DNA of 64,000 bases from Podospora anserina (lineage: Eukaryota), in contig CM030335.1 in assembly GCA_017654855.1 (NCBI GenBank), positions 1,178,001-1,242,000 on the forward strand, in the 5' to 3' direction. The position numbers and the translations under genes are program-made. Below the pieces are notes generated by a model. The model had not been told where the DNA came from. It searched no databases and worked only from the letters and a program-made list of their open reading frames with translations. This document shows, piece after piece, positions 31,618 through 53,231 of the stretch. The first letter of the stretch is position 1. Each line of letters starts with the position of its first letter.

Positions 31618-31964
31618 AAAACCAACGATTTTGACATCATGGCTGAGGTTTCAATTCTTCGAGTGCGAACTTCTAGAAAATGCAAGACAAGACCACTGAC
31701 ATTAGAAGACCATTCACCCACCCTGCGGCTAATTCCTGACCGATTTGTCAGGACAGTTAGACCACACCGCGCAAGATAAGTTAGGTCCTGCTCCAGAGCC
31801 AGACACTTGCGAATCTCCTTCATCTCAGCACATGACGAGCAGCGGTTACTTGCCATATTCCCTTCGTCCCAATAAGGAAACATCATGGCTAACACAATAA
31901 TATATTTAGTATGAGTAGCACTTCATTACGGATGTCCTTCATCCCAACATACATCGAGCAGCAC

Positions 31965-34900
31965 TTAATCACGGTATCTCCTTTGTCCCGGCACATTAAA
32001 GCAGTGCTTACTCACAATAACTCCGTTCTCACCGCCGTTCACGTTGTCAAAGTATCTCTTGATGGCCGGGTTATCGACCTGGTGCTCACGAAGAAGCCGG
32101 TCCTCGTCCGTGTGTGCCATCATGAAGTGGTACACATACACAGTCTTCATCTGTCCGTACCGGAGGCATCTGCCCTTGGCCTGGCGAACCGTGATGGCCT
32201 GGTGGTGCTTGTTGGGGTGGAAGTAGGGGTTGGCAAAGATTATGTGGTTGGCGACGGTGAGGTTGCTGCCGGCGCTGGTATCGTTGTCAATGTTGAGGAG
32301 CATCACATTGCCCCCGGTTCCTGACTTGAACTTCTCCAACATAGCAGACGTATCCCTCGAGCTGGTGACTAAAGCCAGGTTAGTGGCCTTGGGATCTATC
32401 TCCTTGATCCTGGACCACAGCTTCTCGAGGTAGGACTGGTACTGGCCGAATACCAAGACACGCTCATCTTTGGCGATGATGCTTTTGATCAGCTCCATCA
32501 TGTGGTCCACCTTGGACATCTTGACGTTGTCGTTGAGTTCGGTGCAGGGGATGACTGGGCGTTCCTTGATGAAGGACGAGCATTTCCTGGCAGGGCAGAG
32601 CCTTGCCGTCTGTGGATGGCGACAGGCAGAACACAAGATGTGTCCACAGGCAACCACGATGTAAGACTGGCTGGCGGAGGTCAGGGGTCTCCCGCAGCTC
32701 TCACCATCGCAGGTCCTTGATTGCAGCAGCTGGTCCCTGTCCGGAGAAGTCGAGAACTGGATAAACTTGGGCATGAATGCGAGTTCCTTCGTGGCGTTCT
32801 TGAAGTCGCCCATGGTCTTCATCAGCTCGGCCACCGTCGATTTGAACTCTAAAAGCATCGCGGACTTATTTTCTGGATTCTTGAAGATACCGTCTTTAAG
32901 GGACTGGGGTCTGCCGTCGCGGTAGGCACCTCCACGACCTATGTTCTTGCTATGTTCCCAGAGTGCTTGACGGAGCTTGGGTACGGCGCCGTGAGATTTC
33001 AGGTTCAACTCCACTGCTTTGGAGACTAGCTGGCTCCTGGTCGTACTGGCGCTGACGTGGAGACCTTCGACATCAAAAGGTAGGCATTTTTCGTCATCAT
33101 ACTCAGGTCTGTCCGGCATGAGGTCTCTGTGCGCATGGCAAAATTCAACCAGTTCCTTGACAGTCCAGTTGCCGAGGGTCGTTTTATCCTGGTCCAGACC
33201 ATTGCGAATATCAGGCAATGGCATATTAGGCCTGGGGTGAAATAGAGGCTCCGGATCAAAGCCGCCCGGGATAAGGGGGGCCTTTGCCAGGGGAGTGTTG
33301 ATGTGCAGTGTGCGGCGTAGAGCACAGAGGTCTTCAGCAAGCCGTACCGCGGTCTCGTTGCTGACTGTCTTGGGAATCTCGATCTCCGCTTTGTCGAAGA
33401 AGTGCAGCCAGGTAAAATGAGCCTTGGAATGATCGTATCCGTCCACCCAGGGGCCCTCGAATTCTTTCATGGGTTGAGCAATGATAGCGGCAGGATCGAC
33501 GGTAGGATCAGTCGGAAGACAGCCGTTGACCATGGCATGAGCCACACAGTTGAACACTTCTTCTCCCCCCCCGTAGTGCCTGAAGTCTCCTTCCCTTGCC
33601 ACATTCACCTCTTCACAGAGGTATTGGAATGAGCACATTGCTGCTTCTTTTTGCAGGTTCTCTTGTTCTTTTTTGACTTCATTGCGGTAGAGGTAAGTAA
33701 GCCATTTATTGAGCCACACAGCCTTATCCCAAAGAAACTTGACGGACGTTGCCAGTCGGCAATGGGATCTCGTGAGCGAGTTCTCGAATTCTGGAAGTGT
33801 CAAGGCGCGAGACACAGCCACCACATCATTGGCCAACAGACCCAACATCATGGTCGTAGACTTGGTTGAATCCCCCATATCTTCTTTCGAGTAGTCTGGC
33901 TGCTGGCGTACGTGACTGGATATGGCTGCAAAGTCCATGTCGGCATCGAGGGCTTCCTGGTGCGCCATGTAGTAGCGCGCTGCCGTCACTCCTTTCATGC
34001 GGACAGGAAGAACCACCTCCACCGAAGAGAGAGCCGTGCCACCATCATCGGTAACGCGGTTGGCGCGGAAGAATTGCCGCACGAAGGCCTGGGCCTGGGA
34101 GTGTCTCTCGTGGGCGAGAGATGCACTCTTGAGCGCGGAGGAGTAGGCGTGATACTCCTCGCTCTTGGAAGCAGGTTCCAAGACCGGACCACCAGTGATG
34201 GCCGGGAGACCGGGCATGATGCGCGGTTCGGGCCGCGCCAAATGAACGCCAAAAACCTTGGCCGTCTTGCAGACCTCGGAGAGGCCGAACACCTTGGGCG
34301 TACCCGAGAGGAGCCACTTCGCGTTCGCGACAAGGTTTTCAACAAAGAATGGGATGTTCTTGTTGTCCGCCTTGTGGTCGTATGAGCACTCGTCCCATAC
34401 GACACGCGCGAAGCTGCAGTTGTGCAGCCACGAAACGCACCAGGGCGCGCGAGCGCCCGGCACTTGCTCCCCCCCCCCTTCTTCCTTCTTCGCCGGCGAA
34501 GCTGGGACTTTATCCCTTGGGGTTCTCTGGTCCTTCCGCCGGCTATCGGGAACGATCTTGGCCAGGAAAGCCTCACGTTCCGACGCCTGCAGACCAAAGA
34601 AACGGTGCTCGGCTGCGGCGTTGTCCTTGCCGCCTGCAGCCGCGAGCTTACTGGCCGTCAGGATGCGCAGGTTGCGCAGAGCCTGACGGTACCAGCGCTC
34701 ACGCGCGCGTCCCGAGAGATCCTTGAATGGGGGATCAAGATCGCCCCATCCAAACCCCCACAGTTTCTCGAAGAACTTGTCACCGAGGATCTTGGAGCTC
34801 ATGATGATGAGCTCCGCCTTCCTCAGGACGTCCAACTTCCGGCCGAGGTAGAACTGGGCCACTGTTTTGATGACAATGACCTGGCTTCCGACCTTCAGAC

Positions 34901-37900
34901 CGAGGAAGTTTTTCGCTTCGAGAGACCACTGCTCCGTGAGGTGCTCAGGCACCACCACAAGAGTCGCCGAGAGATGGATGAAGAACTCATTCTTCTCATC
35001 TTCGGCGAGGGGAAGTCCCACTTCTTTGAGCTCTTCGTACTTGGACTTGAGCTCCTCATGCCAGCACTCATCAACCTGGCGACGCTCCTCGATAGAGGCC
35101 TCGCGGTCGAACCAGCGTCGGGAATCGATCAGCGCAAGTGTCACCACCGTCTTTCCGTATCCAATCTCGTGAGCCGCCACGCCACCTCGAGAGCTGTAGG
35201 GAAATCTGGTCGGCCAAGTCGCTTTTCCAACAACACGGACGGAGAGAGGGGTCACCACCTCCTCCTCAATCTCGGTTTCTAGGAATGGCTCGGGCTTTTC
35301 CTCGCGGAGAAGCATCCATAAAACAGCATTTCGTTGACTGTCGCGAAGCTTGTGACGACCGGCTTGGAATCGAGGTGGGTTGATCATCCTGTACTTGTCG
35401 GCTTCGTCGTACTGGATCCCGTGTCTGTTGCTGTCATTGCAGGGCTTGATGAGAGGATGGAAGCCCGGGAAGCTCATGTTTCGGGGCTTGGCATGATCGA
35501 TATAAACCTTGAAGTAGGTCTCTGCAGACTGGATTGCCCTGCTGCCACTTGGTACCGTTCTGTGTGCTTGTAAGAGGTATGCATAGGCTCTTGAGGCCAG
35601 AACTTGGGGCTGCAGTGTGGCTATGAGACACAATTCGGGATCTTGAAGCTGGGCAGCGATGGCAATGGCTCGTGGCATATTGAGGAGAGTCTCCTCAAAA
35701 TCTTTGGCTTCATCAGGGTCTTCAACAGCTAGACGCTTGCCTTTCGTCTTGCTGATGTGGATCTCAGGTGGTGGCCTTGACCATTGCTCAGACCGGTGGA
35801 TGCAAATCCAGTCAGTAAAATGTTTGACTTCTTCACGAGGTCCGCCGAGATTCTGGGCTCTGAAGGCATTTGCAGCGAATGCAAAGTCATGCAAGAAGTC
35901 TTCGGTGATGTTGGAGGGAACCATGATGAACTGTCCCGGAGTTCCATGAGCCTCGAGCATATGCCTTCGAGCGGCCGACAAGGGAAATTGGTCAACATTG
36001 GCAGTTATTTCAGCAAGGACAAAACGTGAGAAGTGTGGAGGGCTAGTAGCGTTATCCCCCAAAGACGACATAGGTGCAACATCTCTCGTTTGTCCCCAGT
36101 GAATTTCAGTAGCTTCGAGACGTTCCCATATACTGAGGGAGTAGTCTTGCTGAATCTCGGTCCAATATCCTGGACTGAAGAGTGTTGTTTCGCCAATGTG
36201 CCCAACGGGAAACGTGGTGAGCTTCAGATCCGGAAGAGCCTGGATGTAGGTATCCCTGATCTCGTGGTAATCAAGCTTGCGCATCTCACTTGACCAGACC
36301 AGAGAATCCTCTCTAGCAGGACCGGTCCGAGAGCATTGGCGGAGGATGAAAGTCGGCTCTGTCTGATGGAACTCGGGTAGGCTGACGTATAGCTCATTAC
36401 CGGCTGTCCCGCACTCGGGTGCATGCGCATATGTGCCCGAGACTTTGTCTCTTACTGTGGCGAACTAGGCCTCGGCAAGATGTGGTAGACCTTCTGGCTT
36501 ATGCGGAATGGAGATACGGACCGCAGTGCTGGAATCTCTCTCGAGGAGGGCGGTGATGTTGATTCTGTCTGGGATCCAAAACGACCACTTGATGTTGTGG
36601 ACTCCATTGACGCTCATGTGGAAGTCGCCGCGAGCAATGGGCGGACTCGGTTCAAACGTCCTAGGGAGGGTGGGCGGATTGTCGAGGTTGGAACCTGGGT
36701 TGTGATGAATGAACCAGGTAGACTTTCCATCTGGGTGGATAACCAGACGGGCGATGGTCCTTCTGGACTTGTATGTGGCGGTGACGACTTCGCTGACCTT
36801 GATCTCTCCAAAGAAATAGCGAGTTTTGCTGGCCAGGATCTCGCAAGCCGGGGGCTGTTTCATTCCTTGAAGCTCAGGCAGGTTATCGGGAAAGATTCCA
36901 AGCACGAAGGCTTGGGGAAGGTGGTTCTTGAGGGACGCCTTACCCCCATCAGAGGATACTTGAGCCGCTTCTTCATCTGAAGCTCCGGGGGAGTGGGTCC
37001 TCCAGGGTTCGAGCTGGTGAAGGGGATTCCCACTGCACTCCTCACAAACGGTTGTTTGGCATGTCCGGCAGATAAAATAGCTAGGAATCCCATCTTGATC
37101 CGAAATAACGGGTGGTGGGCAATGACACACGCGGATCATGTCACGAACAAGTCGATGCACAGTATCGGGCTCATACACGACTGATGTAGTCGAGGGCTGC
37201 TGGGTGCCGGGCTGAAGAAGCAACTTCTGCGATCTCGTGTAGTGCTTGAACCGTGAGGCGAGGGGACCGCTGACGGTGTCGAAGAGTGTAGGAAAATGCC
37301 GGTGAATTGCAAGGAGAGCTGCATGCGTGGCTGCGCCGACTACGGTGACTGTCATGGCATTGCCGGCCAGATCACGAAGCTGCTCTTGAGTTTCAGACGA
37401 AATCGCCATCTCGTTGACGGGCATGCCTTGAAGAGCCATGACCTCTGTGCCAGTGATCGGACGCATCAAATCTGTGACAATGGGGGCGCCGCTGGGGGTG
37501 ATGCAGCCAATGATGCCCAGAGATTGCTTGAAATTGCTGACGGAACCAGTACGGTTGAAGGGGGTGCATCTGTCGACGTTTTGGCTGACATCAATGACGC
37601 AGGTCTTGTGACCGAGATGGATTCCCGCCTTGTTGCCGGTGGCTTCGATGATGTCCATTGTGTCGATGGATCGGCATGTTTGTTGTAACCACCAGCGACG
37701 CCATGATTGCGGCGGAAGCTTGGGACCGATCACCTTGAGGTTTCGCATCATCTTTTGGCTGAAGGGGTTGTCGTCCATTTCAAGTTCGTGAAGGCTACGC
37801 TCAGCTGCATGGCGAAGACTGCTCGTGCCCCAATCCGAGTCTTTGGTCGTACGAGGCTTCTCCATATCAGCGCGGGCCGTGATCGTACCGATGTCGTCTG

Positions 37901-39051
37901 GCAGCTGGAGAAATGAGGCGACGGATGCCGAGGGGGCACGTTCAAGGCTCTTCATAGTTTCTCGCCAATGAGCTATGATCGACTCAGCCTCTTCCAACGT
38001 GGGACAGCCAGGAGAAGAGGCGGCGTCAGTGTCAATTGCCATGAGATACCCACGCTGGCGTGTTTGCGGCAGATAGTACCGCTTGCTATCGATCTGAAGG
38101 TATCCGGCCTTGTAACCGATAAGTGGGAAAATCCGTTTGGTGTACATGCACCAAGGAGCGCCGTCGACATTTTCAAGGATGACGATCTTGGGGCGTCTCT
38201 CTTTGATGAAAATGAGCGCCGAAAAGAACGTGCGCATCGATTCACCAAGCTTCGCGTCCTCCATGCCATCAAGGCATTCGTCGAGAACTTGGTCAAAATC
38301 TTTGTTTCGTCGCACTGGGTGCGTTTTCTTAATGTCTTTGTCCTTCTTCTTCTTGTTGTCATCATCAAGAAGCCATTTATCGAGATTTTGGAAAACGCCA
38401 AGCTTCTCTTCGGTCTCCTTTTTGTTTGCTTTGGTCATGTTGATATTCAGAGTAGAATAATCGACACATGAGCAACCGCAGAAGAAAATGTCGATCTTCT
38501 CCCGGGGAATCTCAACCTTGGAACCGCCTGCGGTGAGACTGTGGCGCTGGGTTAGCCGAGTGGCATCACAGCATCAGGTTATAAACTTACACTTTTCCAT
38601 CCAGCTTGCTGGCAGCCAAAGCCAAATCTGCAACATCGCGGTAGATAATTGTCGGGGCTGGCAGATTCCTTCGAATGAAGCCTTGTTTGAAGGCCTCGAT
38701 CTCACAACTGAACTGATGAACTAGCTGGAACGGTGTCGGATGCCCAAGAATCTCAACAGCCTTCATCAACGCCTCTAGAGCAATGATGGGGGCATCAGTG
38801 CCGGAGCAGACAGTCGCCACCCGCAAGATGACTGTTTTCTGGGAAGGCGGCGGAACCCGAGAGGCCATGTCGAAGAACATGTCTCCCACTTGGGTCAACG
38901 GGGCAACGCCGGTGAGAATGGCGGACTCTTTTGTGCTCGAAGCTTGAGCATCAGCAACTTCCTTGTCATCGTTCGAGGAGGCTGGCTTCTTCTTGGTCTT
39001 TATGGACGACTTGGTCGCATCCAAGTTGTCGGATTTGCGCTTGGGAGGCAT
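31965..39051 (-). CDS. DNMT5: DNMT5-family C5 cytosine DNA methyltransferase fused to a SNF2 ATPase and RING finger (exons 39051-38591, 38538-31965), with one internal in-frame TAG at 36467-36465
   Basis: MTase motifs: LRVATVCSGTDAP (I), FSCEIEAFKQGFIRRN, IDIFFCGCSCVDYSTLN (IV, the SC type seen in DNMT5), ILENV (VI), YYLPQTRQRGY (VIII) and DLAGNAMTVTVVG (X). These are followed by a Cys-rich CHC..CRTC..CEECSGNPLH segment and SNF2 motifs GGVAAHEIGYGKT, TLVVVP, RVVWDE, WLLSGTP, VLVFGQY, SAGSNLTVANHIIF and QAKGRCLRYGQ, with a RING CGHILCSAC. A 52-nt GTAAGT..CTAAC..CAG intron lies at 38590-38539. The two long ORFs share a frame and are separated only by the TAG. The extreme C-terminus could carry another intron. 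Confidence 0.9.
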
Positions 39052-40584
39052 GTTGTCGCTACCCTGAATTAGCTGTTATTCATATATCCGGATAAGTATG
39101 CTAAAATGCATCGGATGTCATACTCAAGATCAGGAACCTTGTTGTTGAATGTCTGAAAAAACACAAGTCGGAGTTGGAAAACTTGGAGGAGGACAAAGGT
39201 GCAAGTAAACGAAAGCAGCGCGGAGGGGTGGTTGTGAAAAGTCGCAAGGCTCCGAGGCTGACCCACTTCGGCCCGGGCGAGGAGGGCTGGCAATTAGGGC
39301 GCGGAGACCGGGATCGTGGAGACCGGGGCAGCCGTGGAAACGGGGGCAACGAGCCGGCGAGAACCGCAAGGGCGTAGTAGAAGACTTAGAGAAGACTTGG
39401 ACGTGGGCAGCATGCTTTGAGAGAATGATATGAACATGCCCAAATGGTCAAGTTGGATTGAGAGATTCAGGGGTAGGTAAACAATGTTGATGTTGATGAT
39501 GTCCCAGCCAGGCTACGGGGCTCTGGGGCAAGTAAACAACGTGGAAGCGCTGTGAAGTTAACGCACCATTCATGCTTCAGCACCTAACGTATAAAGAAAG
39601 AAGTTGATCTCCATAACAGAACAGCAACATCCTTGATATGTCCTGAGAAAGGGACAGCGCTAGCACATAGCTTGTATATGTTGCATCGAGGCCAACGACA
39701 TCTTGGCTATCACTCCGACAAGCGTCTCCATGTTCATGCTGAATTGGCGTTGAAGCAGAAGATGTGAAAAAACGCTGGGTTAGTGCCCGTCGAGAAAGAA
39801 ACAAGAAGCGTGAAAGCTGAGCCGCAATAAAGGACGGCAATGACTTTTGTGTCATGCTGCATCTGGCGGATGGGCTTCTGCAGTAACATGCCGCAAGAAA
39901 TGTGTCTACCCATAACCGCATCACTTGGCAAACCCCAAAACACAAGATCTCCAACCAAAGCTGACAAGAAGTTGGAAAGGGCCATGGGAATGGCTTACAC
40001 ACATTCTTGCCAATGAAGGAAGTGATGTACCACAAAGCTCGAGCCCAGGCGTTGAAGATCAGAGAGCCACGCCACGCCTATATAACGATAGGGAGGCCGG
40101 GCATACCATGATACCATTTCGAGAGAGGGGAGTCACCACCTAGCACTAAGTTGCCCTTGTGGAGATGTGGCGTATTAGAGCAAGAAGATGTCAGAAGCAG
40201 AAACTGGGGGATAGCCAGAGACTGACAAAAGATGAAGGCAGATTGTACCTATACGAAATAGTCCAGACAGTCCATGAGACTTCGACACGCTCCCAAAAGG
40301 ATCAGAAATCCACGGCTGAGAACTTGGGATTGATCTTGATTGGTGGACGACGACATGTCGTTGAAGGTGGGTTCCGCCAAGACACGTGGCTGGACGGCTG
40401 GGACATAATTATCAAATCCCTGTCTCACAATCAGATGTCCAACAGACACAACCGTCCAGAATTCGAAGCTGTGTAGTGATCCCTATATCAGCAAAACAAC
40501 GTTGAAAACGGTCCGGGATTGGAGAATTCACTGCTTTAACGACTGGGTTCTTGACGTGAGCGAAATCCTTGATTAGCTGCTCAG

Positions 40585-43249: not shown

Positions 43250-46200
43250 ATGGACACCAGATCGTTTGGTAGCAGCGGCAGCAGTAACAGCAGCAGCAGC
43301 AGCGTCAGCGGGAATGGTGGCGCCCCTGCGCTCCCTGGGCGTCCAGCACAAAGCTCAGTGCTTGCTCCAGTGTCCGAGGTGCCGTCGTTACGAGGCATGG
43401 AGAGGCTGTCCACCAGTAACCTTCGCAGCACCTTCCGTCCCAGCCTGGTCGTGCAGCACCGTGGTGACACAGCCGTCACACCTGAGCCGGCCAACGTCGC
43501 ACTCGACAGCCGCGACAGAACTGGCCAGGCGTCCCGCGCTTTCGGTTCCGTGTCACCTCAGACCTCTCCCAGAACGATACCCGGTGTCCCGGCCAGCCTG
43601 CCTGTGAGGCGCCAGGGTGTGGTCTTTAACGATTCCTTTGCCGGGTCCTATGAGGCCAATTCGTCCAGTCCTCCGCTTCGACCGCCGCCTTCGTTTCGTC
43701 CCAGGACACACACGATGGACGGTGCTTTCCGCCAACAGCTTGCCCCGACCGTCGAGGCACGACACCGCGTCGGCTCCTTTTCCTCGTCTCTCCCCGTGGC
43801 TGATGAGCTCAGGCTGCCGCCTCTCCAGCCACCCCTTGACTCATACCGACTCCCAGATCTCCAGCAGACATCACTCAGCACGTCTGCTCAAAAGGACAAG
43901 AAGTCGGCAGGCACCCGCAGTCGTTTGACAAAACGGCCCTCGTCTCGGCCCAGCTCGCCCCTGCTTTCCCTCCCGCCATCAGTTGACTCGTTGCTGCTAC
44001 CCATACCAACAACTGATGCGAACAAGGTGCTGCTGCTGATGAAGAATCTCTGCGGCAGGATGCGAGGCGATATAGAGTACCAGCGAGAAAGCGGCGGGCC
44101 CTGGCACAGCGGTGTATGCTATATAGAAGAGGATAAAGGAAGCCTAATGTTTGACCCAGGGGACCGGGGCCCTTTTCACACCACACTGGTCCCTGACCTG
44201 CGTGGGTGCAGGGTGGTGCCAATGGAACAAATGGATGGAGAATACCAATGCCTGGAACTCATCGCTCCCCAGCTGACATCAACCCTTCTCTTGCGGCCGC
44301 TGGTGGCCGAAGAGCTCGATCTCTGGCTGGCGGCGCTTCTTTGCTGGCAACAACTGCGACCGCCCGCTTCAAAACAGACACCACCTCGCGCGACCACCAC
44401 AGCAGCTCCAGCACGACCCGAGGTCAAGCGCCGTGTGTCTTCTTCGGGCCTGCGCGACACCCCCGTAATCAAAGTTGGCAAGGTCATGCTGTGGGACAAG
44501 GGCATCGCCACTTCTCCTCGCGCCATCGTCAAACGACCCTCGACCCGTGATCTCAAGTCAGCGCAAACTGCATGGAGAAAGGTGTCTTGTATTCTTCATG
44601 ACAATGGTGAGCTCAAGCTCATGACGGAAAATGATGTAACGGTGCTCTCGGTCATTGAGCTGCCTCAGCTAGCCAGGTCAGCCATTCAGCAGCTGGACAG
44701 ATCTGTGTTGGACGAGGACTACTGCCTGGCCATTTTCCCCATATACTCGTCGACCTCCACCCAGCTTTCGATTTTCAGACCAATATATGTGTCATTAGAG
44801 TCGCGGGTGCTGTTTGAGGTCTGGTTTGTGCTTTTGCGCGCATTCACTGTTCCTGACGTCTACACTCTGGATCCCGCCAGCGGAGGACAGGTGTGCGAGG
44901 TGACAGATCTCCAAGCTGAGCCTCCTGGTGAGACCTTTAGGCTGGAGAAGACAATATCTGTGAGGGTTACTGAGGCCAAACTACGCGGGCGCACCCTTAT
45001 TGCAGACGGACAAGCTTCGGATCGCCATAACAAGAGCGCCGATCACGAAGGAATCACGGGCAATTATCTGGCCGAAGTCATCCTCGATGGAGAGGTCAGA
45101 GCTCGCACGACCACCAAGATGAACACCAAAAAGCCGTTCTGGCGGGAAGACTGCGAGTTTGTAGACCTCCCTGCGTCGCTGCCTTATCTGTCGGTCCTGC
45201 TGAAACGGATTGATGGAAACATGGAGAGCTTCACGCATCAACTACAAGCTACTTTGGGGTTGGCCAGGACAGGCAACCTGGTTGAAGTTCTCTGCGGTGC
45301 TGTTGATATACCACTGCATCAGCTCGACCGAGGAAAGGATCACGAGCAGTGGTTTCCGATCTGCGATGAGAGACACCAGTCTGTCGGCTCCATGCTGGTA
45401 CGGCTACATCACGAAGAGCTTGTGGTGCTCCTATCTAAACATTATCAGCCGCTTTCAGACCTCCTGCATCGCTTTAGCTCTGGACTAACGGCGCAAATTA
45501 CCGAGGCCCTCCCCGGAAACCTGCGGCGCGTCGCCGAGACGTTTCTCAACATATTCCAGGTTTCAGGCACCTCGAACGAGTGGCTGATGAACATGGTTGA
45601 GGAAGAGATTGACGGCATTGGAAGCCAGGCCACGCTGAAAAAGCCCAGGTTCAGCAGTCGGCTCAAGTCCAATGACTCCCTAGAATCCACGAGCGATAGG
45701 GAGCAAATCGTTCGCGATATGGGCAAGTCGCTTCAGGGTGAGGCCAATTTGCTGTTCAGGGGCAACTCCCTCTTGACGCAAGCACTCGAGTTTCACATGC
45801 GCCGCCTTGGAAAGGAATATTTACACGAAACACTGGCCGAGAAGATATTTGAAATCAACGAGCTCAACCCCAACTGCGAGGTCGATCCCAGCAAGTTGCA
45901 GCAGGGCGAGGATGCGCAGCATCATTGGAATCACCTCATCCAGCTGACAAACGAGCTTTGGGGCTGCATTGCTGTATCAGCGTCACGGCTACCACCCGAG
46001 CTCCGGCATATTCTCAAATACATTCGTGCTGTGGCCGAGGATCGATACGGAGATTTCCTCCGCACCGTAACCTACACCTCGGTGTCTGGCTTCCTCTTCC
46101 TTCGCTTCCTCTGCCCAGCTATTCTCAACCCGAAACTATTTGGCCTCCTGCGCGACCACCCTCAACCCCGAGCCCAGCGCACACTAACCCTCATAGCCAA

Positions 46201-47179
46201 GGGTCTCCAAGCCCTCGCAAACCTCTCCACCATCGGCAAGAAGGAAACCTGGATGGAACCCATGAACCGCTTCCTGACCGCACAGCGCCAGGCCTTCAAA
46301 GACTTTCTCGATGCCGTCTGCGCTATCCCCGCCGAACGCACCAAAATGACCCTCCAGGCCTCCTACTCAACCCCAGTCGCCATCATGGGCCGGCTATCAC
46401 CACTCGCTCGCGAAGGCTTCCCCTCGCTACCCTACCTCCTTGATCCCGGCCGCAACTTCGCCGCCCTCGTCAAGCTCTGGATGGACGCCCACTCCATCAC
46501 CGCCAGCGCTTCCAAGGTGTACACAGGGGACCTTTTGAAATTCCACACCATGTGTGTAGACCTCCACCGCCGAGCAACAGCCTGCTACTCCCAGATCGAA
46601 ACCCTCCGCAGCGCCGTCGACGCAGTCAGCCAGCTCCCCGACAATGACCGCATCAGCCTCACCGATGCCCTTGATCGGATCAGCCTGGGCGACACACTGC
46701 ACATCTCACCATACAGCAACAGCAGCCACACCGCCTTCTGGTTTGACGCCGAGGGCCGCCCGCCAGGCTCGGCGGGGAGTGATGTCGTGCTCGACCATAC
46801 ATCCCTGGCGCTTTCCCCGAGCAGTCACAGCAAATTTGACTCGAGGTTTGGTGGAGGGAACAGTGGGGGTGGCAACAACAGACAGGTCTCGAGAAGCAGT
46901 GAGATGTCTGGTGCCTATGGTGGCGGCAACCCTGGCGGTGGTGGTGCTGCTGGCACGGTGCGCAACCTGCCTCGGAAGCTCCTCAATGGCTTTATTCGTA
47001 AGACGAGGACGGTTTCACCTGATATGCCTGAGGGCGCGACGAGCTCCTCGTCTACCCCCAGCAGTGGCACGCCGTGGGATCGGGAGCAGCAGGCGCAAGA
47101 AAGGGGAAGAGACAAGGAATATGAGCGGGAACATAAGCGGAGGGAGAAGGATAGGGACCGGGGTAGAGATAGGGATTAG
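43250..47179 (+). CDS. BUD2: Ras-family GTPase-activating protein with C2 and RasGAP domains (Bud2/Cla2-like)
   Basis: C2 domain (AEVILDGEVRART..PFWREDCEF), RasGAP arginine finger LFRGNSLLT, and the signatures FLRFLCPAILNPKLFGL and RTLTLIAKGLQALAN. Confidence 0.88.
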   Translation: MDTRSFGSSGSSNSSSSSVSGNGGAPALPGRPAQSSVLAPVSEVPSLRGMERLSTSNLRSTFRPSLVVQHRGDTAVTPEPANVALDSRDRTGQASRAFGSVSPQTSPRTIPGVPASLPVRRQGVVFNDSFAGSYEANSSSPPLRPPPSFRPRTHTMDGAFRQQLAPTVEARHRVGSFSSSLPVADELRLPPLQPPLDSYRLPDLQQTSLSTSAQKDKKSAGTRSRLTKRPSSRPSSPLLSLPPSVDSLLLPIPTTDANKVLLLMKNLCGRMRGDIEYQRESGGPWHSGVCYIEEDKGSLMFDPGDRGPFHTTLVPDLRGCRVVPMEQMDGEYQCLELIAPQLTSTLLLRPLVAEELDLWLAALLCWQQLRPPASKQTPPRATTTAAPARPEVKRRVSSSGLRDTPVIKVGKVMLWDKGIATSPRAIVKRPSTRDLKSAQTAWRKVSCILHDNGELKLMTENDVTVLSVIELPQLARSAIQQLDRSVLDEDYCLAIFPIYSSTSTQLSIFRPIYVSLESRVLFEVWFVLLRAFTVPDVYTLDPASGGQVCEVTDLQAEPPGETFRLEKTISVRVTEAKLRGRTLIADGQASDRHNKSADHEGITGNYLAEVILDGEVRARTTTKMNTKKPFWREDCEFVDLPASLPYLSVLLKRIDGNMESFTHQLQATLGLARTGNLVEVLCGAVDIPLHQLDRGKDHEQWFPICDERHQSVGSMLVRLHHEELVVLLSKHYQPLSDLLHRFSSGLTAQITEALPGNLRRVAETFLNIFQVSGTSNEWLMNMVEEEIDGIGSQATLKKPRFSSRLKSNDSLESTSDREQIVRDMGKSLQGEANLLFRGNSLLTQALEFHMRRLGKEYLHETLAEKIFEINELNPNCEVDPSKLQQGEDAQHHWNHLIQLTNELWGCIAVSASRLPPELRHILKYIRAVAEDRYGDFLRTVTYTSVSGFLFLRFLCPAILNPKLFGLLRDHPQPRAQRTLTLIAKGLQALANLSTIGKKETWMEPMNRFLTAQRQAFKDFLDAVCAIPAERTKMTLQASYSTPVAIMGRLSPLAREGFPSLPYLLDPGRNFAALVKLWMDAHSITASASKVYTGDLLKFHTMCVDLHRRATACYSQIETLRSAVDAVSQLPDNDRISLTDALDRISLGDTLHISPYSNSSHTAFWFDAEGRPPGSAGSDVVLDHTSLALSPSSHSKFDSRFGGGNSGGGNNRQVSRSSEMSGAYGGGNPGGGGAAGTVRNLPRKLLNGFIRKTRTVSPDMPEGATSSSSTPSSGTPWDREQQAQERGRDKEYEREHKRREKDRDRGRDRD

Positions 47180-51102: not shown

Positions 51103-53231
51103 ATGGCGGCACGAAAGCTGCAGCAGGAAGTCGACAAGTGCTTCAAGAAGGTGGCTGAAGGTGTCGCCGACTTCGAGGCCATTTACGAGAAGATTGAGCA
51201 GTCCACCAATCAGGCGCAAAAGGAGAAGCTAGAAGATCAGCTGAAGCGAGAAATCAAGAAGTTGCAGAGGCTGCGCGATCAGATCAAGACATGGGCTGCT
51301 AGCAATGATATCAAGGATAAGGGGCCGCTGCTGGAGCAGCGGAGGCTGATAGAGACGGTCGGTTGCCTACCTAGTTTGATGATAGAGGATGTGCTGTGTG
51401 CTTACTGGTGTGTTCCGTCTGTCTAGCAAATGGAGAAGTTCAAGGCTGTCGAAAAGGCGATGAAGACGAAGGCGTACTCTAAAGAGGGGTTATCAGCCGC
51501 CACCAAGCTGGACCCCAAGGAGCAAGCGAAGCTGGAGGCAAGCGAATTCCTGAGCAACATGGTTGACGAACTCGAGCAGCAAATCGAAACCCTCGAGGCC
51601 GAAGGCGAATCGATACAAGCCACCATGAAGAAGGGCAAGGGCCAGGCAACCAAGCTGGAGCGCATCGCCGAGATAGAGCGCATCATCGAACGGCATAAAT
51701 GGCACCAAGGGAAGCTGGAGCTGATTCGCCGCTCACTCGAAAATGGGGGCGTCGAGACCGAGCAAGTCACGGACCTAGAGGAGAGCATCAAGTACTACGT
51801 GTCCGACGGCATGAACGACGATTTCCCCGAGGACGAGGGTATGTACGACGATCTAAACCTGGAAGAAGAGGAGGATGCCTTTGGTATGAATCTGGAGAAC
51901 GACAAGGGCTCATCACAGGACACCCAGTCGGTTCAAGAGGAGCCAGCCCCTGAGCCCGAGATGACAAGACCGGCAGCTGCTGCTCCGGTCGGGAAGCAAC
52001 GCACGGTGGCCGATGCTGTGACAGGGTCGGCTACACGACGTCCCTCGGCCCAAAAGTCACCCCTCCCAACGCTCGCAACCGTCCACAACTCGCAAACAAC
52101 CAACAGCAATGGGGTCCAGGCCAATGTTGCCATGAAGCCGGCAGCGCTACCAACCCGGCCCGCCGAGGGTTTGAAGTATGCCAGCGCAGCAGCAGCCGCT
52201 GCCGCAAGCGATAAGAACAACGTGGGCATTGCGCCTTTACCCCCTCCGCCAGGTGCTCCTCCAGCATCCGCCGCCTCTCCGTTAGCACCAAGTCAGCCGA
52301 GGACAAGTACTACCAACTCTCCCAGCACAGCACCCATACAACCGGTGGTGCAGGACAGGGCACCCCTACAAACTGCCCAGCCGCCAGCCAAGGAAGCGCC
52401 CAAATCTGCAGCATCAAAGGGCAAGGCTCCTGTACAACCGCCAACCGTCACACCAGCAGCTCCAGATCACGGAGATGCCACCCCCGCGCGAGGTTTGTTT
52501 AGGCAGTCAAAAACTGGACTTGACGGGCAAGGAGCTAACAGATGTTTCAAAGCAGGTTCGGCGTCAACACAAGGGGCTCCAGTATCAGCACCAGTACCGG
52601 CTGCGAACGGCGTTTCTAATGGCATCAAGCCAATCGAGGAGGAAGAGGAAGATGAAGAGGAAGAGTCGATATATCATCTCCCCGCGGCCCTCCAAGACCT
52701 GGTGGAATCATACGAAGTGACCAAGAAGCGGACGGCGTCAATAAACTCACCATTGACCCAGAGGATGCATATCACATCGGAAGCGGCTAAGCCTGAAGCT
52801 GCGGATGCCGAACCACCCCGCGCGTATGTGCCGGAGACGAAGTACCTCGCGCACACACACTTCCCACAAGAGCCGCTAGATATCCTGGATGACCCACGAC
52901 TGTACGAACGAATCGAGCCAGACACACTCTTTTACGTTTTCTACTACAAGCAGGGGACATACCAGCAATATCTTGCCGCGAGGGCTTTGAAGGACCAGAG
53001 TTGGAGGTTCCATAAACAATACCAGACATGGTTCCAGAGACACGAAGAGCCAAAGTCGATTACCGAAGAGTTTGAACAGGGGACGTACCGCTTCTTCGAT
53101 TATGAGAGCACATGGTTGGTCTCCCTTCCGCAAAGATACCATGGACGAATCGCTGCTGACAGAGCCCCAGGATGAACCGCAGGAAGGCAGATTTTAAGTT
53201 TGCCTACAAGTTTCTCGAGGATGAGGTTTGA
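51103..53231 (+). CDS. NOT3: CCR4-NOT complex subunit Not3/Not5 (exons 51103-51357, 51427-52492, ~52553-53114, 53171-53231)
   Basis: N-terminal [20 protein letters not shown]...[13 protein letters not shown] and a C-terminal NOT box [31 protein letters not shown]...[26 protein letters not shown]. Confidence 0.95.

Follow-up and report, generated by a model that had tools for sequence, protein, structure and literature searches.

Dnmt5 of Cryptococcus neoformans is an ATP-dependent maintenance methylase that acts on hemimethylated CG. Its gene encodes one uninterrupted protein, in which the methyltransferase comes first and the RING-bearing SNF2 ATPase second (structures 7R76, 7R77, 7R78 and 7T02, which were deposited as 'DNA repair protein Rad8'). 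The second system that is close to the present one comes from Fusarium graminearum, in which 71 premature-stop-codon (PSC) genes are reported to be restored by editing, including PSC49/FgRID1 (Qi et al. 2024). The latter is described as a DNA-methyltransferase-like gene in need of sexual-stage A-to-I editing, so that one editing-dependent gene of this kind, the RID of F. graminearum, is already known. The TAG stops in PSC genes are reported to derive mainly from TGG. Fungal mRNA editing is reported to prefer U at −1 and hairpin loops and, according to the abstract of a review, has its preferences for sequence and structure in common with the editing of tRNA A34. Sexual-stage A-to-I editing is stated for the class Sordariomycetes in general; for Podospora itself, the part of the literature that was covered held such class-level statements only, with no demonstration of editing and no published site.

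The gene described here was found in a stretch of 64,000 nucleotides of Podospora anserina DNA (contig CM030335.1, positions 1,178,001 to 1,242,000; hereafter the window). By its sequence it is PaDnmt5, the published name of Pa_4_2960: outside the 36 residues that the PODANS_4_2960 model skips, the protein read from the window was 100% identical to that model. Two stop-to-stop open reading frames lie in one frame on the minus strand, at 36465–38573 (702 aa) and 31965–36464 (1499 aa), and the only thing that separates them is a TAG at 36467–36465. The initial annotation had claimed a DNMT5 gene whose frame is open save for this one codon. This description held: the joined coding sequence is 7,035 nt long, with the internal stop at codon 845, and the ATG-started frame downstream of it measures 1439 aa. 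Sequencing runs gave contigs over the locus, of which those of X1 and X5 were taken as RNA and that of X15 as DNA. The features are as follows.

39059–39123, minus strand: 5′ UTR intron of 65 nt that ends 7 nt before the ATG; the X1 contig joins 39058 to 39124, whereas the stretch is present in X15 (DNA)
38591–39051, minus strand: coding exon 1, which encodes the N-terminus with the first of the methyltransferase motifs; ATG at 39051–39049; 153 codons plus 2 nt
38539–38590, minus strand: intron of 52 nt; GTAAGT donor, CTAAC branch, CAG acceptor; skipped by the X1 and X5 contigs, kept in X15
36468–38538, minus strand: rest of the upstream frame, the methyltransferase half to codon 844; DNA_methylase match at about 37332–38234
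36414–36521, minus strand: stretch annotated as 'intron', in variants of 108 nt (36414–36521), 57 nt (36465–36521) and 36 nt (36455–36490); most likely coding
36450–36480, minus strand: predicted RNA hairpin; 10-bp stem with two 1x1 mismatches and a 7-nt loop at 36468–36462 (41-nt and 101-nt folds)
36465–36467, minus strand: in-frame TAG, codon 845; candidate edited adenosine 36466 (T on the plus strand)
31968–36464, minus strand: downstream frame of 1499 codons; SNF2-related match at about 34785–35336, RING at about 32580–32699, Helicase_C at about 32154–32510; first ATG at 36284
31965–31967, minus strand: normal stop codon of PaDnmt5 (from the open reading frame)

The assignment to DNMT5 was borne out by Pfam domains and by a phmmer match to the Cryptococcus protein, as well as by the published name. 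The part upstream of the TAG matched DNA_methylase (E 1.3e-12; 48.2 bits against a cut-off of 22), and the part downstream matched SNF2-rel_dom (E 1.7e-12), Helicase_C (E 3.3e-05) and zf-RING_5, the last at 21.7 bits, which is under the Pfam cut-off of 27.9. Methyltransferase, SNF2, RING and Helicase_C thus all lie in one frame, a single TAG apart, in the order of methyltransferase and then ATPase with RING that Cryptococcus Dnmt5 has. The match to 7r76_A had an E-value of 2.4e-86, and six matched stretches ran from the methyltransferase to the C-terminal part of the helicase. In the alignment of homologues (A1), the conserved methyltransferase blocks were common to all, and exon 1 was colinear with the N-termini of the orthologues. 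PaDnmt5 differs from the uninterrupted Cryptococcus gene by its stop, and also in that a Pfam search found no chromodomain in its N-terminus. The 65-nt intron in the 5′ UTR was absent from the initial annotation.

The stop was examined in DNA and in RNA. The independent DNA contig of X15 was identical to the window over 31800–39250, TAG included. Open reading frames from public assemblies, which fall into two sequence variants (P0024 and P0030; P0025 and P0029), stopped right before the TAG, and others began again after it. An assembly error as the source of the TAG is ruled out by the X15 contig and by the frames that end at the site. The runs X1 and X5 are RNA-like: GT-AG introns that are present in the DNA run X15 are missing from their contigs. 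The X1 contig (5,585 nt) skips both the 52-nt and the 65-nt intron and was unbroken over 34456–38538, where no letter differed from the window; that of X5, which also skips the 38539–38590 intron, was unbroken across 31800–36930, and that of X6 covered 36412–36693 with no gap. No splice joint was found at the TAG site in any of these three RNA-like runs, which come from three studies, and the stop is therefore retained in RNA and not constitutively spliced out. The X6 contig differed from the window by two letters, which are unplaced; none was listed away from the contig ends. At 36466 the X1 and X5 contigs read A, with no other letter, so that no A>G was seen at this position in contigs that drop minority variants and come from runs without a stage label.

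Gene models skip the TAG in all annotated members of the P. anserina complex, but by three different introns in the six species (108, 57 and 36 nt), as gene callers invent when they are forced over a stop. The stretch 36414–36521 is most likely coding, because the RNA contigs cross it unbroken and because two outgroup loci from metagenomes, L001 and L002, have continuous open reading frames there. None of the 15 proteins in the cluster came from a read-through frame with a residue at the stop site; a search for shorter proteins that are split or read through around the site gave 395 candidates, none of which was scored. Outside the complex, the state of the site was taken from gene models and not from the DNA of the relatives. 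All four of the deeper Podosporaceae models also delete the segment around the stop. In the models of Cercophora samala and Apiosordaria backusii an exon starts exactly one codon after the site, at the junction of the 57-nt intron, which would require AG at codon positions 2–3 in these two species. The model of Triangularia setosa has Ala at the site, so that outside the complex the stop is not uniformly conserved.

For the ancestral residue, the stop was anchored on the CGTAGN motif, from which it lies at −18. All 11 motif-bearing homologues from outside the Podosporaceae had W at the aligned position, and P0013 also had W. In tblastn, L001 and L002 aligned to the region without a gap, inside their continuous frames, again with W. 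A gap that MAFFT placed at the site is an artefact, because both the CGTAGN anchoring and tblastn align the stretch with outgroup coding sequence. L001 and L002 were the only loci, both distant, that a metagenome scan with A1 returned, with no Podosporaceae DNA; a scan with the single protein gave 27 pattern matches, none of them a relative. P0064, which appeared to be a relative with Gln at the site, was rejected: it is a copy of the PaDnmt5 locus in which every C reads as T (bisulfite-like), with the TAG translated as Gln. The nearest outgroup clade has Trp, and the change is therefore TGG to TAG, by one G>A. It is not a C>T change private to the strain, since the whole species complex shares the stop and the outgroup residue is Trp, not Gln. 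In the wider family, Trp was present at the site in 4 of the 55 DNMT5 representatives covered and is conserved only in the nearest clade, while Cryptococcus Dnmt5 has Asp there, so that it is not obvious that the enzyme needs Trp to be restored. Taken together, the TAG is real, is kept in the mature mRNA, is common to the species complex and is aligned with an outgroup Trp; a premature UAG at codon 845 is fixed in the complex.

The surroundings of the stop were compared with those of known editing sites. The site reads C U A G U U C. Relative to the editing preferences of F. graminearum, C at −2, U at −1 and G at +1 are preferred and U at +2 is neutral, while U at +3 and C at +4 are depleted. 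In predicted folds, the adenosine of the UAG sits at position 3 of a hairpin loop, directly after U. The hairpin appeared at nine of ten flank sizes, with a closing-pair probability of 0.85–0.98, and disappeared with flanks of ±30 nt, the span on which published analyses are based. Of 23 UAG triplets in the transcript, only the stop had such a geometry. The predicted 7-nt loop, with U just before the A at loop position 3, resembles the tRNA anticodon loop, in which A34 is the substrate of Tad2-Tad3; the stem, as far as a thermodynamic prediction goes, is unlike it, having 10 bp with two mismatches and not 5 bp. On such modelling, the cis context of A36466 fits the preferences of fungal A-to-I editing. 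Expression has been described in a preprint (10.1101/2024.12.09.627484), which reports a growing up-regulation of PaDnmt5 between T12 and T42 of a sexual-development time course after fertilisation. No mention of a stop codon or of editing in PaDnmt5 was found in the part of the literature covered.

PaDnmt5 resembles the PSC genes of F. graminearum (PUK1, PSC49/FgRID1) in that its frame is intact but for one UAG, of TGG origin by G>A, with U at −1, G at +1 and a predicted hairpin loop, and in that its expression is reported to rise in the sexual phase; with FgRID1 it also shares a place in the DNA-methyltransferase and genome-defence toolkit. It differs from them in that its editing is a candidate only, in that Podospora belongs to the Sordariales, in being a DNMT5 and not a RID, and in its depleted nucleotides at +3 and +4. 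We consider it probable that PaDnmt5 is a premature-stop pseudogene, of the type known from Fusarium and Neurospora, that is repaired by sexual-stage A-to-I editing, and the gene is a strong candidate for such repair. In this mechanism, G>A would have turned an ancestral Trp codon TGG into TAG. In the sexual phase, A36466 would be converted to inosine by the tRNA deaminase Tad2-Tad3 and its sexual-stage cofactors, within a target UAG that is presented in an anticodon-loop-like hairpin. Edited transcripts would read UIG as Trp and give the full methyltransferase-ATPase of 2,344 aa; unedited ones would give at most a methyltransferase-only fragment of 844 aa. The occurrence of editing, its timing and its effect on methylation are what we infer from these observations.

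The alternative that survives best is that PaDnmt5 is a young pseudogene, in which a G>A nonsense mutation was fixed in the ancestor of the complex with no rescue, and whose frame is intact only because little time has passed. The RNA contigs, which show TAG alone, agree with it. Moreover, the species of the complex are only about 1–2% apart in protein, so that an open frame is not very surprising. Within the complex, 65 amino-acid substitution events fell in the 1,464 columns of the downstream half and 47 in the 826 columns of the upstream half, so that the part behind the stop does not evolve faster than the part before it. The downstream half diverged from P. anserina by 0.8–2.1%, against 3.9–5.9% for the fast-evolving neighbour Pa_4_2920; both halves diverged less than half as much as this neighbour. 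Nor was PaDnmt5 accelerated relative to its divergence from Cercophora samala, when compared with the neighbouring RasGAP gene. A count of nonsense mutations was marginal for the downstream half, where about three extra stops would be expected under neutrality and the probability of none is 0.03–0.05, which makes this a weak test; for the whole gene, the probability of no extra stop was 0.004–0.008. An 18-aa gap in the model of P. bellae-mahoneyi could hide one extra stop, and thus a defect.

Judged by this divergence, both halves of PaDnmt5 are still under constraint, and the earlier argument that the gene is not a decayed pseudogene is supported by the low divergence of both halves and by the lack of acceleration. 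Three further points stand against a recent loss. All four deeper Podosporaceae models delete the segment, two of them restarting one codon past the site, although the stop outside the complex is deduced from gene models and not from DNA; the gene is reported to be up-regulated in the sexual phase; and the type of stop, together with the ancestral residue, is the one combination that editing repairs exactly. On balance, we consider a young pseudogene unlikely.

A bypass of the stop by splicing is still less probable. Here a cryptic in-frame intron of 36, 57 or 108 nt would be removed in a minority of transcripts or at a particular stage, leaving an otherwise complete product without 12–36 residues, the form that the public models imply. 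All three annotated introns do have GT...AG ends and lengths that are multiples of 3, the 57-nt one finishing exactly with the TAG, and the models of C. samala and A. backusii share the 57-nt junction. These two models, which in A1 begin an exon right after the TAG, had suggested a constitutive phase-0 intron of 57 nt (36521–36465) with the TAG as its AG acceptor; this candidate is ruled out, since the RNA contigs cross the site unbroken. A minor isoform could escape notice in contigs, but no joint was present in the three RNA-like runs, even though X1 has a contig that lacks both true introns, and the annotations conflict, with three solutions in six species. The fungal branch-motif consensus is CTRAY. 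Donor and branch are GTAAGT/CTAAC in one true intron and GTATGA/CTAAT in the other, unlike the 57-nt candidate, whose donor is GTCCGT and in whose 57 nt no CTRAY motif was visible. The removed segment is colinear with the continuous coding sequence of L001 and L002, and the 108-nt version would lose 17 residues that align with conserved residues of distant homologues.

That the mRNA is not recoded at all is very improbable. In this case the UAG would be read through, or a separate SNF2/RING protein would start at the ATG of 36284, after reinitiation or on an internal transcript, and act in trans with the methyltransferase fragment. The 1439-aa ATG-started frame after the stop and the depth of the X6 contig (27.3 downstream of 36439 but about 6 on the upstream side, contig depth being a poor measure) would agree with it, but the steps in depth lie in different places in X1 (about 34479), X5 (about 36930) and X6 (about 36439), so that the runs give no sign of a common internal start. 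The first ATG lies 61 codons past the stop, so that the conserved CGTAGN block would be lost, and we know of no read-through context made by UAG followed by U.

Repair by sexual-stage editing is thus the reading that we prefer. A wider version of it, which we put forward tentatively and would place somewhat below an even chance, is that the stop is older than the complex, being shared with Cercophora, Apiosordaria and Triangularia verruculosa, that it has been kept across the Podosporaceae while the 1,499 downstream codons stayed intact, and that the full enzyme, and with it DNMT5 methylation, would exist only where Tad2-Tad3 edits, that is, in sexual tissue. Such a stop, if editing-gated, could explain the elusive role of PaDnmt5 and of 5mC in the mycelium of Podospora.

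If editing does occur, PaDnmt5 would be the second, independent gene of the DNA-methyltransferase family, after the RID of Fusarium, that is kept as a pseudogene and switched on by sexual-phase editing. It would be a new case in a different fungal order and in the DNMT5 family, the biology of which is largely unknown in ascomycetes. A pair of alleles, TGG (pre-edited) and TAA (uneditable), would then make a clean test of the role of DNMT5 in Podospora. The public protein models of PaDnmt5 would be artefacts across the complex; three invented introns in six species mean that phylogenies and structure models built on them lack 12–36 residues. If editing is absent, the locus would hold a recently disabled DNMT5, which is relevant to how methylation is read in the P. 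anserina complex. If it is present, the question would become why DNMT5 activity is kept out of vegetative cells.

The gene, which lies on the minus strand and encodes a DNMT5 protein, is already named in the literature as PaDnmt5 (Pa_4_2960). Its features are as follows.

Minus strand, one shared frame: two stop-to-stop ORFs of 702 and 1499 codons
39059-39123, minus strand: 65-nt GT-AG intron in the 5′ UTR, skipped by one RNA contig of run X1
39051, minus strand: start ATG
38590-38539, minus strand: 52-nt intron with textbook signals
36467-36465, minus strand: in-frame TAG, the single separator of the 702- and 1499-codon ORFs

The coding sequence is 7,035 nt long, and codon 845 is its sole internal stop. 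The initial annotation had described one in-frame TAG, a 52-nt intron and a 7,035-nt frame; ORF search and reading of the sequence bore this out in every detail. The 5′ UTR intron, which ends 7 nt upstream of the ATG, was absent from it. Pfam placed a C5 DNA methylase domain before the stop, and an SNF2-related domain, a helicase C-terminal domain and a RING finger after it, the RING match being below the Pfam cut-off. The closest solved relative of the product was Cryptococcus Dnmt5 (7R76; E 2.4e-86). Outside 36 residues that are missing from the model PODANS_4_2960 (Podospora anserina S mat+), the protein from the window showed 100% identity with it. The RasGAP-like ORF at 43250-47176 (plus strand) differed from the P. 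anserina S mat+ protein at 1 of 1309 residues, and the window may represent another strain or another assembly version.

Four coded public sequencing runs were compared with 31800-39250; the contigs represent the dominant form only, and the runs are of unstated developmental stage. X15 behaved as DNA, with a single contig identical across 31800-39250, and may itself be the source of the assembly. Among the proteins that cluster with the P. comata orthologue, ORFs from public assemblies ended directly before the stop, in two sequence variants, and further ORFs restarted behind it. The stop was thus upheld when checked, as the initial annotation had proposed, for an assembly error.

The ancestral codon was sought in an alignment anchored on the conserved CGTAGN block, where the stop takes position -18. 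Trp occupied this position in all 11 block-bearing homologues outside Podosporaceae, and also in the database protein P0013. In two distant loci from metagenomes, L001 and L002, the ORFs were continuous here, and tblastn aligned their Trp gap-free with the stop. Since Trp has a single codon, the change was from TGG to TAG. The large gap seen at the site in our MAFFT alignment of homologues was dismissed as an artefact of truncated Podosporaceae models. Trp was present in 4 of the 55 representatives covering the site (56 in the wider family), and Cryptococcus Dnmt5 had Asp at the aligned site; as judged from these sequences, Trp is a trait of the nearest clade only.

The segment was missing from all four deeper Podosporaceae models. 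Two of them began an exon at position -17, which needs AG at the final two positions of the site codon, and one jumped directly to CGTAGN. From these gene models we infer that the stop may be common to species beyond the P. anserina species complex. The Triangularia setosa protein (P0003) conflicts with a simple shared-TAG picture: against 36465-36467 it had Leu-Ala just before the Phe that follows the Podospora stop, giving an apparent Ala codon, and it also lacked about 20 residues upstream of the site. A TAG private to this strain, with Gln in orthologues, had been named as a way for the claim to fail; the stop was removed in the models of six species of the complex, and the outgroups carried Trp, not Gln.

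One further database entry, P0064 (175 aa), matched approximately 36250-36770 and was rejected as a protein. It was a copy of the locus with every sense-strand C read as T (Pro to Leu or Phe, Thr to Ile, Ala to Val, His to Tyr), and every TAG appeared in it as Gln. The entry looks as if bisulfite-converted reads had been assembled into a contig and then translated under a reassigned code. It suggests the existence of a conversion data set for Podospora anserina in which the matched strand was unmethylated.

Fungal A-to-I editing in the sexual stage, by Tad2-Tad3, is reported to prefer strongly U at -1 and hairpin loops, like tRNA A34. The preferences described for F. graminearum are C/U at -2, U at -1, A/G at +1, +3 and +4, and G at +2, with the hairpin loop among the top-ranked features, behind positions -1 and +1 (PMC9600606). 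The site in PaDnmt5 reads C, U, [A], G, U, U, C. Preferred nucleotides thereby occupy -2, -1 and +1, a neutral one +2, and depleted ones +3 and +4. In the predicted fold, the A is position 3 of a 7-nt loop whose 10-bp stem contains two mismatches. This hairpin was predicted in nine of ten window sizes, with a closing-pair probability of 0.85-0.98, and was lost at ±30 nt. When approximately 7.2 kb of the sense transcript was scanned (31800-39250, minus strand), 23 UAG triplets were found in all frames; five of these lay in hairpin loops in each of the three windows tried, and the 7-nt/position-3 geometry occurred only at the stop.

F. graminearum is reported to have 71 known premature stop codon (PSC) pseudogenes, with TAGs mainly from TGG, and these include PSC49/FgRID1, the RID orthologue (PMC10776026). 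In a time course of sexual development, PaDnmt5 is reported to be increasingly up-regulated from T12 to T42, and N. crassa is described as lacking the gene (10.1101/2024.12.09.627484). In the accessible text of the literature on Podospora, PaDnmt5/Pa_4_2960 and A-to-I editing, no mention of the stop or of editing in PaDnmt5 was found. The most likely reading places PaDnmt5 among the PSC genes whose frame A-to-I editing restores. We hold this with only somewhat more confidence than doubt, because such a gene would be defined by A>G in sexual RNA, and the contigs of X1 and X5, which give the dominant form only, read A at 36466.

A young pseudogene, in which nothing rescues the stop, is unlikely. 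Within the complex, at least 47 amino-acid substitution events were counted in 826 upstream columns and at least 65 in 1,464 downstream columns; behind the stop, evolution was no faster than ahead of it. If the gene were neutral, about two further nonsense mutations would be expected upstream and about three downstream, and none was visible; the probability of finding none is 0.03-0.05 when only the downstream half is counted and 0.004-0.008 over the entire gene. This count is weakened by the P. bellae-mahoneyi model, which lacks 18 otherwise invariant residues (34416-34469, minus strand) by a nine-G run, just ahead of the ATPase DExx box; the gap could mask a defect in that species, namely a frameshift or another stop codon, or may stem from a homopolymer error in the assembly or from an intron that is not real. 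PaDnmt5 diverged by 0.8-2.4% within the complex and by 21-26% from Cercophora samala, the RasGAP gene by 0.8-1.2% and 6.6%, respectively, and Pa_4_2920 by 3.9-5.9% within the complex. These figures, calibrated on three neighbour genes by amino acids without synonymous sites, and with the Not5 comparison distorted by differing models, are suggestive, not decisive, that PaDnmt5 is not accelerated within the complex, its rate being less than half that of the fast neighbour Pa_4_2920. For the Not5-like gene (51430-53172, plus strand), the models conflict across the complex (a 581-aa ORF; 647, 676 and 710 aa), which inflates its apparent divergence to 4.5-4.8%.

Annotated models come from six species of the complex, and they remove the stop in three different ways.

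P. anserina and P. comata models: 108 nt removed at the stop
P. bellae-mahoneyi and P. pseudocomata models: 57 nt removed at the stop
P. pseudoanserina and P. pseudopauciseta models: 36 nt removed at the stop

The 57-nt stretch was first read as an intron, because the TAG ends it and the models of C. samala and Apiosordaria backusii share its 3′ junction. Its donor is GTCCGT and no branch-site motif is visible, in contrast to the two verified introns. X1 behaved as RNA: one 5,585-nt contig lacked 38539-38590 and 39059-39123, and ran unbroken across 34456-38538 with no differing letters. In X5, from a second study, one contig lacked the 52-nt intron and another covered 31800-36930 unbroken. In X6, from a third study, a gap-free contig crossed 36412-36693 with two differing letters, unplaced, none being listed away from the contig ends. 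No joint at the stop was reported in any of the four runs, whose contigs give the dominant form only. Constitutive splicing at the stop, by which the initial annotation had allowed its claim to be refuted, is thus ruled out, and the 57-nt stretch was rejected as a true constitutive intron. A minor or stage-specific splice bypass is improbable. At 36439/36412 the X6 assembly is interrupted: two contigs overlap there by 28 nt, depth steps from 27.3 to about 6, and the short contig (36412-36693) has an 8-letter loose end at 36693. This may reflect a variant, the end of a transcript or low coverage. That ribosomes read through the UAG, or that the ATPase half is translated on its own, is very improbable.

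A system of the type favoured here, restoration of a PSC gene by A-to-I editing, is already known, with a precedent in the methyltransferase family. If true for PaDnmt5, what would be new is DNMT5 as the gene and Podospora as the organism, and every public PaDnmt5 model would be shown to be wrong.
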